From NCBI GenBank assembly GCA_002269645.1, contig NIVC01002385.1:1-58572 (forward strand): a DNA stretch of 58,572 bases. The letters are read 5' to 3'. Below the pieces are notes generated by a model, which worked only from the letters and a program-made list of their open reading frames with translations, was not told the DNA's origin and did no database searches. A program made the position numbers and the translations under genes. Origin of the DNA: Macrostomum lignano (lineage: Eukaryota). Positions 34,301-37,300 of the stretch are shown in pieces (positions within the stretch are counted from its first letter, which is position 1; each line of letters opens with the position of its first letter).

Positions 34301-37300
34301 TATCCAGTACCCTATCCAAAACCAATGCCCCCTCCTAATTTCTAAACCCCAATCTTATTCCCCGTCTCACTTACCGCTTTTAAGGCTCTAGCCAAGGCAA
34401 AACCCGCATTCAATGCTTTGGCTCTACTCTTTTCTTGCTGTGGCGGGTACAGCGGGAGGTCGTTAGACCTAGACCGCTACTTCTTGGTGGCCAGAGGGCC
34501 GCAAGAAGGTCCCGCCACCTCCTGTTGTGTGGGGTTGGATTCGGGGTTCAGATTGGTTATTGCTATGGAACGGGAGCTGATTTATAAATGGCTGAGTGGT
34601 CCCCGGAAGGGCTCTTGATTTGCCAATAGTTCCCGCGGGAGGGCTGTTGTGTGGGGTTGGATTCGGGGTTCGGATTGGTTATTGCTATTGAGCGGGAGCT
34701 GGTGTTACTTACCAACTCCAGTCATATATAATCTCGCGCACAGCCGGAAGGAAAGCTCACAGTTTTTGACAGTGAACAAAATGGAGTTCAAGACATTATC
34801 GAACAGATTTCGAATCGGCGTCAGGTCGCACTCGAAGTGCATCAGCTTCAGAAAGTGGTACAAATTTGCCGAAGAGTATCGACCAGGTCTGCCTGGCATG
34901 GAGCTCACCGTCCACCAGTTTTGCCACTTGGGCAGCCTGAAGGAACGACTGGAAGAGTTTGCAAGAAAGTGTATCGACGCGCAATGCCTTCTGGGCGGCA
35001 ACAGGCAAGTGGTTGTGCAAAATGGCGTAATCACACTCTGGCGCCTTCCAACTGTACTCGGACCGCCGGTGCACCTAAGGCACCGCCGGTGCCTTACCGC
35101 TTCCTACTACACTTTGGCGCGAAGTCTGGGCTCAAAAGCAATGGGTCCTAGACAAAATTGACAAGCGAGAGCCTCCGGTCGAGCCGCCGATCGGCAATCC
35201 ATGGTGGATGGGATACCACCCTACGGAATCTGAAGAGTGTGCAGCATGGGCAGCAAAGCTTACATTTGACCAACTGATGCAAGTACCTGACAGGCAGTCG
35301 GCAGATTGGGACGACCACTGGGGGGCCTTCCAAGCAGTTCAGGCTGAATTTAGAAAGAGATTTACATTCGAAACTCTGGAAGAGCCACCAACAGCTGAGA
35401 AGAACCAACAGCCTTCATTCCACCAGCCACCAATGAAGCGACGCGCAATGCATGAAGCGACAACTGGTCATTTCGTCAATTAACTTTTTTTTAATATAGT
35501 TTTGAACCATAGTACTGATCATGCACTGTTGTATATATTGCTTTGTCAATACTGGCCATAATATTTCCCCATCATGCTTTGATTCCTGGCGATAATACTG
35601 TTTTGTAAATACACGCGACGGGCCTTAATACTGCCCTTCCATTCTTCATAAACTTTTTTTGTGCTAATACGAGCTTTTAACATGTAATTTTATGCTTTGC
35701 AATCCATGGACCTGCCAATAAAATAAAAAAAACTTTCATTTTCGTAAGCATTGTTGCACAAACATAGTCGCATTCGCGTTTATTTTTTCTTATATTTTGT
35801 ACACAAAAAATACAGAAGTAAAGTTACAGCAAAAATATTATTATTATTACTCGGTGCATAGGCAGATCTCACTACTACTGTTATGCCGTAGAGGAGCTCA
35901 GTCAGAGTCCAGCAAAGTAGGTTCGGATGCTTGATCTGGTAGCAAAATGCGAGAGAGGGCATCAGCTGCAGTCTGAGCCTCAACCACGCTGCGAGCACCA
36001 GCTATTATACAGCGATATGAATGAAACAAAATCAACTTTACAGAGGCAGTAAACTCGAGCACAAGTCCGTTAAACATTTCCGGCTCATAGGTGCCCGATG
36101 CGGCCATTTAGACTTGACTTCCCCCAACCGGAGTGGATGCGGACCCGCGGGAAAGGCCGTCACAGAGGTAATAGTCTTGATGCGAATCTGGGGCAGACTG
36201 GTCAATCGCAAGAAGTCCGCACACAGCTTCACAATCTTCTCCGTCTCTGCGAGAGCTTCCTCCAGGCTTTTGGCTCCACAGACAGACACTTGTCCGGTGG
36301 GATACACCAGCGCGGTTACTCGATGCTGCCCGCTCTTCATCACCACTGCCAGTGTTCGAGGATGAACCAGGCGATGGCGGATTGTGTGATACTGAGGCAG
36401 ATGAAGAGTCAGGAAATTCGCTAGTTGTGGCAGACCCACCCGGGTCGCCAGGTCGGCTCCTGTCACGATGTTTGTCACGCGAATTGTTGCGACCATCTTT
36501 AGACAATCGAGAGAAACGCCAGTGCCTGCTGCAGATCGCTACTTTTATAGACCCGTAGCCGCGAGGCCGCAGCCAATCAGCGTACAGCGCCACTTTGGCC
36601 AGGGCGCAGGGTAGCACGTACTTTGAGGCACTCGGAAAGGCTAGGTGTGCGAGGTCGTAGACAGGCTGCAGCAGCAGACGCGACAGGAACTGGCACTTGA
36701 CATCCCCCTTGCTAAATATCGGGCCTTGCAAGTGAGAGATATCGCTCCAGAGACAAGAGTAGGGTCGGAACCCACTCCTGTCCCAGTCTAGACCGTGCCG
36801 CTTATTGGTGAGCCAGTAGCAGGTTCGTCGCTGTCCTCGATCAAAGAGCTCAAAGCTGTGCGGCGGCTGGTAGCAATAGTAATGAGCCGTCGTTTGACCG
36901 CATGCAAACTCAACCCATGCAATTTCCTTAATCACAAAGTCCTCTGTTTTGTAGAGGTGCGGAAATCCTTCAAAATCAATGACAATCATCTTGGCCACTT
37001 GATCCACTTGCCGTATCCTTTCTGAGACTGAGTCTTCTTATAGCCTTGCAGTCGAGGTTTTTTAGGACTGGACTTTTCTTCCCGAGGCTTTTCCAGCAAT
37101 TTTGTAGTGTTCAGACCAACTGCAGACAGAGGCACGTGGTTTTCTTGAAGACACGTAACAAACTCATTAATCCCATTCGGTGGCTGAAGGTACTTAGAGT
37201 ACGTATCTTTAACTATGAAATGCAGCAGGTCCACGATTTTGAGTTGTACAACGGTTTACCATTGACAGAAACTTCATACGTATCATCTATGCTAATCGAC

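Follow-up and report, generated by a model that had tools for sequence, protein, structure and literature searches.

A Sub1-like gene of animal Mavericks has been annotated under the name MOSUB but is undescribed in the literature searched. It is a Sub1/PC4-like gene that stands terminal in an animal Maverick-type element, opposite PolB: the machine-read label row of Supplementary Fig. S2 in Starrett et al. 2021 (PMC8502044) runs ITR, PolB ... Hexon, MAEL, MOSUB, ITR. The accessible main text of that paper does not mention MOSUB, and the name was not found in the open literature among the matches listed; it may be discussed in supplements outside that scope. Here we describe a gene of this kind from Macrostomum lignano, on a stretch of 58,572 nucleotides that comprises positions 1 to 58,572 of contig NIVC01002385.1 (assembly GCA_002269645.1; the window). 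The gene lies, likewise in terminal position, in a Maverick/Polinton (adintovirus-type) insertion, where it converges on a TBP-like gene. We regard it as a member of the MOSUB class in the form of a predicted single-chain PC4, from Mavericks that hold a divergent TBP and a candidate late box as well.

The comparison with MOSUB is by structure match only. The top match in BFVD is MOSUB of the Branchiostoma lancelet adintovirus (UniProt A0A5H3CIS2; 185 columns, Foldseek E 2.6e-4, TM 0.39-0.44), with 16% identity. A second MOSUB (A0A5H3CT48, Bos-associated insect) ranks 44th (E 0.079), and a Drosophila-associated adintovirus protein ranks 32nd with a weak E. SSDBP labels also occur in animal adintovirus maps, the available text of which has no TBP label; in the same accessible text TBP appears only in figure legends (as a label in Fig. 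5), for non-animal MELD viruses (PMC8502044). In the accessible text of other Polinton papers and a vertebrate survey the term PC4 was not found, nor was TBP in those searched for it. The sole match for PC4 with polinton in the literature searched uses PC4 as a cluster label, and searches for TBP, TATA or TFIIB with promoter gave no account of such a system among the matches listed; subscription papers lay outside the scope of these searches.

How displaced DNA is protected in protein-primed replication, and how capsid genes are switched without an RNA polymerase, are open questions for animal Polintons in the literature searched. In adenovirus the DBP coats the displaced strand, and the single-stranded DNA-binding proteins (SSBs) of protein-primed replicons have other folds than PC4. 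What the element protein would share with adenovirus DBP and with the SSBs of phi29, PRD1 (P12) and Bam35 is the proposed job, namely coating the displaced strand of a replicon copied by a protein-primed DNA polymerase (pPolB). Viruses with a pPolB often encode unusual non-OB SSBs, the SSBs of protein-primed replicons have been called unique, and acidic tails are typical of phage and bacterial SSBs (accessible part of PMC4889955). A PC4 homologue of phage T5 has been tied to replication (title of 4bg7; accessible part of PMC7549692); it differs in being a homodimer in an RNA-primed phage.

PC4/Sub1 itself (PF02229; 1pcf, 4bhm) has one unit per chain in a type II homodimer, whereas the model of the element protein has two units in one chain. 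The intramolecular-dimer form is the type I PC4-like domain (Janowski and Niessing, accessible part of PMC7549692); Pur-alpha repeats I-II, Whirly and MRP1/2 are of this type and resemble the model in their order of four strands and helix, linker, four strands and helix within one chain. They differ from it in showing 10-13% identity and no sequence match, and the element domain appears to be derived from PC4. No type I domain of a eukaryotic virus is listed in the accessible part of Janowski and Niessing 2020 (PMC7549692).

The PC4-like gene and its predicted protein

The gene and its parts are as follows.
34781..35483, + strand: tandem PC4-like gene, a single gene of 231 codons where the copy is intact; here the frame breaks at about 35075-35095
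34781..34972, + strand: repeat 1 (residues 1-64), PC4 homologue by Pfam, PDB and overlay, four strands and a kinked helix
34973..35170, + strand: repeat 2 (about residues 65-127), second four-strand-plus-helix unit predicted by AlphaFold; the break of this copy falls inside it
35171..35483, + strand: acidic tail in which a Trp-rich helical motif is conserved and whose basic end resembles a nuclear localisation signal, from alignment, charge and model

Natural unbroken or database proteins were aligned in 18 rows, and Pfam PC4 (PF02229) matches all 18 members at E<=0.1; the window protein itself reaches 16.9 bits against a Pfam cut-off of 25. Searched against the PDB, the alignment profile gave significant E values for PC4/MoSub1 chains only (1e-7 to 2e-6), over the first 55 positions, and no PURA chain was found up to E 10. 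HHalign aligned repeat 1 with host PC4 at a probability of 97.3% (E 2.6e-11). By these sequence comparisons repeat 1 is a true PC4 homologue, in agreement with a preliminary description of the locus, which had recognised the PC4 fold.

That description also reported a second similar unit, which is supported by the predicted fold but not by sequence. HHalign gave repeat 2 a probability of 0.35% against repeat 1, with 18 of 60 column shuffles scoring as high, and of 1.65% against host PC4, where 1 of 60 shuffles did so; the attempt to prove repeat 2 a PC4 unit by sequence failed. AlphaFold, given a natural unbroken copy and the 18-row alignment, predicted two units of four strands plus a helix each, at a pLDDT that is mostly 89-95 across residues 1-120, followed beyond the domain by a weaker helical tail with helices at residues 148-195. 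Repeat 1 of the model superimposes on PC4/Sub1 structures at 1.2-1.5 Å, the overlay on residues 62-127 of human PC4 (1pcf) having Z 6.6 and 1.3 Å over 63 residues. Both halves together, residues 1-126, overlay PURA repeats I-II (Z 11.7, root-mean-square deviation 3.3 Å, 121 residues), and an independent wide structure search placed Pur-alpha first (Z 10.9, next Z 8.0). Among the top VIA rows, eight span both repeats and have a named function, and each of these is a single-strand nucleic-acid binder or a mutant of one (PURA, MRP1/2). Because the AlphaFold model matches Pur-alpha repeats I-II, residues 1-127 are predicted to form a single-chain (intramolecular) PC4-like dimer, which upholds, as a prediction, the earlier idea of a tandem PC4 acting in this way. 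An ESM Atlas search with residues 1-130 returned only unrelated matches below 0.9.

The residues by which PC4 contacts single-stranded DNA (R70, F77, R86, W89, K97, R100 and K101; accessible part of PMC4350104) are partly kept. The equivalent of R86 is Arg in all 18 rows, that of W89 in repeat 1 is Tyr or Phe in all 18, and that of K97 is Arg or Lys in 17 of 18; the Pro-Gly of PC4 is also kept in repeat 1. The R70 equivalent is Arg in 3/18 rows, in a region where the alignment register is uncertain. Net charge is positive for the domain in 18/18 rows and negative for the tail in 16/18. The element protein differs from PC4/Sub1 in its two unequal repeats per chain, in its acidic C-terminal tail and in having no N-terminal extension, the N-terminal 60 residues of human PC4 finding no counterpart.

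The gene is real, and the window holds an ordinary, decayed copy of it. Its open reading frames (ORFs) in the window, 34781-35161 (126 residues) and 35208-35483 (91 residues), are in different frames, and the protein motif quoted earlier is present where it was reported. A DNA search recovered at least 30 copies that are 89-100% identical, along with 10 that are distant. The best 20 were compared: six have one 231-codon frame, two (the window copy and a twin) carry the window's break, and 12 are broken elsewhere. The frame break noted earlier near 35076 is in place, as is the 11-bp direct repeat ACCGCCGGTGC beside it, found at 35062 and 35082 only. Since 6/20 close copies are unbroken and the break is copy-specific, the sequence points to decay of the window copy rather than recoding; a programmed frameshift or an intron at the break was ruled out on the same grounds. 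At the break, where a check of reads or cDNA had been proposed, contigs from three of four public sequencing runs show a form without the window copy's length variant. These four runs are presumed RNA and were used as contigs; three of them also span the non-coding spacer, which makes them uninformative on expression.

Both repeats are under purifying selection (pN 0.05-0.30 versus pS 0.56-0.96 in 13 divergent pairs; two close pairs were uninformative). As far as genes could be assigned, the PC4-like gene is the only plus-strand gene within the element, as first reported: of the remaining plus-strand ATG ORFs of at least 90 codons, the two on its right side (36021-36365, 40013-40417) overlie genes of the minus strand, and the one at 33659-34345 crosses the left terminal repeat.

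Scans of IMG/VR with the PC4 alignment, the TBP alignment, pPolB and ATPase found no relative. A metagenome scan yielded one 1.5-kb contig (L077), too short to show neighbours, and protein searches gave 3, 6 and 8 relatives, with few exceptions from contigs shorter than 2.6 kb; one of the last eight, P0011, was dropped as an unrelated surface protein.

Neighbouring genes, gene order and promoter boxes

Two overlapping minus-strand genes adjoin the PC4-like gene.
35898..36496, - strand: two-repeat TBP homologue (198-201 residues in unbroken copies), frame-broken near 36090 in the window copy
36108..36989, - strand: Maverick gene, conserved and with a DxxG-type start, which probably corresponds to the MAEL label of the adintovirus maps; in both lineages described below its frame continues over the TBP gene

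To judge by its relatives, the TBP-like neighbour is a full two-repeat TBP that is broken in the window copy. A TBP of 198-201 residues with two TBP repeats is encoded by 12 of the 20 close copies, and natural unbroken copies match Pfam TBP (PF00352) in two stretches (E 3e-18) and PDB TBPs at E 2e-24 to 7e-17, with a model pLDDT of 85.8. A TBP homologue whose source labels it Macrostomum lignano differs by one residue from the TBP of locus L025. A half-size TBP was ruled out, the window ORF being shortened by the frame break. Four Phe and two Asn are the canonical TATA-contact residues of TBP. Set against host TBP, all 7 viral TBPs compared retain the first Asn and the two C-terminal Phe, and in the same seven the second N-terminal Phe is replaced by Tyr and the second Asn by Thr; the first N-terminal Phe is not kept, at a position where the alignment is uncertain in lineage A. 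The altered residues of the N-terminal repeat would be compatible with a changed box specificity. The EPE-F motif, which in TBP binds TFIIB, is invariant. The TBPs of Nucleocytoviricota share the two-repeat fold; the difference is that the present gene belongs to an animal Maverick without RNA polymerase and that its N-terminal-repeat DNA-face residues are changed. BFVD gave 67 matches to the TBP model at E<=0.001, and no adintovirus entry stands among the named top-50 viral matches, in which many rows are unnamed. TFIIB was not found among the 13 window ORFs and the lineage-B ORFs scanned by Pfam, a scan that small or divergent forms could escape.

In the window the PC4-like and TBP-like genes lie tail-to-tail, as originally observed, and this convergence holds in 20/20 close copies of the window's lineage, here called A, as well as in two more distant lineage-A remnants (L022, L039). 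A second lineage of the same genome, B, has a PC4-like protein that is about 26-34% identical by protein search; the other proteins of the two lineages are 39-59% identical. In 11 of 20 loci examined the PC4-like gene is followed by a co-oriented integrase gene, and 7 of these 11 reach the MAEL-like and TBP genes at the far end of the block. Beyond TBP, all six right-end loci have pPolB on the opposite strand, so that TBP converges on pPolB, and then a Zn-finger gene and the terminal repeat. Genome-wide, at least 104 PC4 matches above the Pfam cut-off were obtained among the matches listed, after three host-like ones had been dropped, nearly all scored copies being lineage B; 55 have a co-oriented TBP match within 17 kb (median 7,452 bp), 2 have one on the opposite strand, and 47 have none listed. 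The TBP list used for this comparison has at least 109 rows, 15 host-like and 26 second-repeat rows having been removed.

Lineages A and B thus ordered differ by one inversion of the central block. The PC4-like gene is the first gene inside the terminus (295-1,026 bp) in the window and in 4/4 lineage-B copies with both ends (6 tried), and TBP is the last gene of the central block in both lineages, where it stays tied to its overlapping upstream gene. Because lineage B keeps both genes with the central block inverted, the co-occurrence of TBP and PC4 holds in two divergent lineages of the genome but their tail-to-tail linkage is lineage-specific.

The upstream partner of TBP, the MAEL-like gene, has no Pfam match; ESM Atlas points to Maelstrom (PF13017, 0.87) as a lead only. 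Its frame overlaps the TBP gene by 330-390 bp, in the same relative frame in both lineages (window 36108-36989; L031 8805-9650), and the TBP promoter box falls in the last codons of the MAEL-like domain. The terminal gene upstream of pPolB in lineage B is Cys/His-rich (L045 2164-3510, L047 2076-3419, L053 6857-7768, L056 7492-8919) and absent from the window copy. It has repetitive tails, LLCHE in two of the four and a TATA-type box before three of the four, and it resembles the 'Oncoid' position in the accessible part of Starrett et al.

Candidate transcription signals near these genes are the following.
34725..34732, + strand: TATA-type box TATATAAT, 56 bp before the PC4-like ATG
36542..36549, - strand: TATAAAAG box that precedes the TBP-like ATG and lies within the upstream gene; in lineage B its place is taken by CTTAAGAA
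37035..37041, - strand: WTAAGAA box, one of six on the sense strand of the central block; the others end at 37907, 40364, 40660, 41296 and 41379
35717..35722, + strand: candidate poly(A) signal AATAAA of the PC4-like gene, near chance alone
35779..35784, - strand: candidate poly(A) signal AATAAA of the TBP-like gene and the minus-strand block, near chance alone

Two box patterns were found. The pattern T[AT]TATAA[GT] occurs within 160 bp upstream of the PC4-like ATG in 14/17 copies from both lineages, and WTAAGAA in 0/17; in the 41%-identical metagenome copy L077, TATATAAG stands about 60 bp upstream. All 7 central blocks scanned (window 35860-42500 on the minus strand, L025, L027, L029, L030, L031 and L052) carry 6-9 copies of WTAAGAA in the sense direction and 0-1 in the antisense direction, against 0.85-1.73 expected and a maximum of 4-6 in 200 shuffles. 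In L031 the box stands before 7 of 10 gene starts (P 0.0006) and in the window before 4 of 8 (P 0.015), mostly at a distance of 11-160 bp; these P values are optimistic in that the pattern was chosen after inspection of L031 and the window and the copies are related. None of the 6 pPolB starts and 4 Zn-gene starts checked has WTAAGAA within 400 bp, the pPolB starts being perhaps placed too far downstream. The box recalls the late TAAG motif of baculoviruses and is a candidate site for the viral TBP.

The TBP gene itself differs between the lineages. Lineage B has the central-gene box CTTAAGAA before TBP and not the TATA-type box of its PC4 gene; the canonical TATAAAAG precedes TBP in the window and in 4/5 lineage-A copies. 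PC4-like and TBP genes are accordingly both of TATA type in lineage A and of different types in lineage B. On the strength of its box, the lineage-A TBP could be expressed early.

The AATAAA signals earlier reported on both strands between the genes are present, at 35717 on the plus strand and 35779-35784 on the minus strand, although they carry little weight in an AT-rich spacer of 377 bp in which 0.36 and 0.93, respectively, are expected by chance. Of 7 copies checked, 6 have an AATAAA after the PC4 gene. Short repeats that share a (C)ATAATA(C) core, possibly a cis element, lie 3' of the PC4-like gene in the window (35484-35860, three by a loose pattern) and in L077 (817-1496, five), and none was seen in three other loci checked. 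Upstream of the PC4-like TATA box, window positions 34520-34700 hold a two-copy repeat, about 120 bp in size, in which ATTGG (reverse CCAAT) and G-rich boxes occur.

Possible functions of the PC4-like protein

We consider that the PC4-like gene has about an even chance of encoding the element's early SSB for strand displacement by pPolB. Host RNA polymerase II (Pol II) would transcribe it early, from the TATA-type promoter just inside one terminal repeat, and the polymerase side (the Zn-finger gene, then pPolB) would be transcribed inward from the other element end. The predicted single-chain dimer (residues 1-127), with its basic surface, would bind single-stranded DNA and coat the strand displaced by the protein-primed polymerase, the acidic tail being a likely protein-docking arm. 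The viral TBP, as part of the invertible central block, would more likely drive the WTAAGAA-box genes. A role as SSB fits best because the gene is terminal and apparently TATA-driven, the PC4-like surface is basic, the tail is acidic, the N-terminal region of PC4 is missing and adintovirus relatives carry no TBP label. The preliminary description had proposed an SSB for strand-displacement replication as one possibility; we rank it first, with the reservation that some PC4 contacts are lost.

Several observations weigh against this assignment. The R100 and K101 equivalents are non-basic in 18/18 rows, repeat 2 has a Pro near the W89 position, and an aromatic residue stands at the F77 equivalent in only 8/18 rows, all of lineage B, with His in the window's family; in human PC4, F77A abolishes binding (accessible part of PMC4350104). 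Repeat 2 has no significant sequence match, and the match to MOSUB is modest. The canonical TATA box of the lineage-A TBP counts against a clean split into two promoter classes, which may be less distinct also in that the TATATAAG and CTATAAGAA boxes share TATAAG. Both lineages keep the TBP gene, so that a functional link may exist. Finally, yeast Sub1 has a similar architecture, in which the single-stranded DNA domain serves initiation and the C-terminal extension elongation (accessible part of PMC9600219).

An early transcription cofactor is a possible but doubtful alternative, in which the PC4 surface would bind the melted promoter and the acidic Trp-rich tail would activate the WTAAGAA-box genes together with the viral TBP, a dual role in replication and transcription included. 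It keeps the functional idea of the preliminary description but drops the physical module. The tail is acidic and aromatic-rich, like activation domains, but the N-terminal region, associated with the coactivator role of human PC4, is absent. The two genes have been retained in lineages whose other proteins are only 39-59% identical, but PC4-TBP adjacency is not conserved. The invariant EPE-F motif, with its part in TFIIB binding, and the loss of some single-stranded DNA contacts are as a cofactor would have it, and a two-part architecture of this kind is known from Sub1 (accessible part of PMC9600219); yet MOSUB-labelled genes occur in adintoviruses whose available map text has no TBP label (PMC8502044), and no adintovirus entry is among the named ones of the top-50 viral matches to the TBP model, in which many rows are unnamed.

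A broader proposal joins the two roles in a two-stage programme on host Pol II, which we hold to be rather unlikely in its entirety. Terminal genes would be expressed through TATA promoters; one of them would make the single-chain PC4, which would coat replicating DNA, and its tail would license the re-specified viral TBP for the capsid, packaging and integrase genes behind WTAAGAA boxes. If true, this would give animal Polintons their missing SSB and also a late-gene switch. For the first, the gene would be a named SSB candidate with an unusual architecture, a PC4 dimer predicted to be fused into one chain; for the second, the elements hold a divergent TBP along with a candidate promoter box. 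The surprise is limited in that the family is already labelled MOSUB and the window copy is ordinary and decayed.

RNA binding, an anti-silencing or repair role, or protection of an excised single-stranded intermediate away from the polymerase is improbable. The best whole-domain matches, PURA and MRP1/2, belong with Whirly to proteins that bind RNA or single-stranded DNA elsewhere, the canonical PC4 contacts are partly lost, and the Maelstrom-like neighbour hints, as a lead only, at a conflict with the piRNA pathway; the sequence homology, however, is to PC4/Sub1 and not to PURA.

An early module at one element end in which the PC4-like and TBP-like genes are physically linked and their convergence is functional, as the preliminary description had it, is very improbable and already largely refuted by lineage B, which makes up nearly all scored copies: despite the convergence throughout lineage A and the TATA-type boxes of both genes there, the inverted block of lineage B leaves TBP co-oriented about 7.45 kb off, facing pPolB and behind a CTTAAGAA box, and in both lineages TBP stays with its overlapping upstream gene instead.

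The element and its genomic setting

The element surrounding these genes comprises the following parts.
33755..44576, no strand: Maverick/Polinton (adintovirus-type) insertion, 10,822 bp, internally deleted, with inverted arms and rve and pPolB Pfam matches
33755..33884, + strand: left terminal inverted repeat, from the inverted arms
44448..44576, - strand: right terminal inverted repeat, from the inverted arms
37876..42166, - strand: central block with packaging ATPase, protease, putative major and minor capsid genes and integrase, by Pfam and, for the capsids, the usual Maverick gene order
42987..44418, - strand: protein-primed DNA polymerase remnant, truncated and broken, with a DNA_pol_B_2 Pfam match

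Its sequence identifies the element as a Maverick/Polinton. The rve integrase and pPolB (DNA_pol_B_2) are both above the Pfam cut-off, and the packaging ATPase (AAA) and protease (Peptidase_C48) matches are below it; the capsid genes have no Pfam match and are presumed from the usual Maverick gene order. Maverick/Polinton insertions duplicate a 6-bp target. Here ACCCAC flanks both ends, within a tandem repeat, which makes it weak as a target-site duplication. The ends themselves, AGTAGT...ACTACT, are of the AGT type described for Maverick/Polinton elements (accessible part of PMC8097293).

The window copy is decayed and, because its pPolB is a remnant, non-autonomous; the pPolB match starts at residue 275 of the 1200-residue lineage-B pPolB frame. 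Lineage A mostly lacks a polymerase: the pPolB remnant has at least 11 matches of 93% or more, the PC4-like gene at least 30 close copies, and no pPolB adjoins the integrase in three lineage-A copies examined (C1184, C255, C862). Lineage A may be mobilised in trans.

The element sits between two exons of a host ABC-transporter gene (flanking ORFs 33264-33710 and 45089-45562, identified from motifs). Exons of this ABCC/MRP-type transporter extend over 27995-33710 and 45089-47043, and tandem repeats fill its introns. Copies of the element that are rearranged or lie close together were seen on C664, C2301, C3189, C862 and C592, some with two opposite-strand PC4-like genes 10-13 kb apart. Host-like TBP-family and PC4 genes each occur at three near-identical places of the assembly (C70/C713/C1301, C350/C3090/C3513 and C860/C1655/C2018; C37/C98/C1344).

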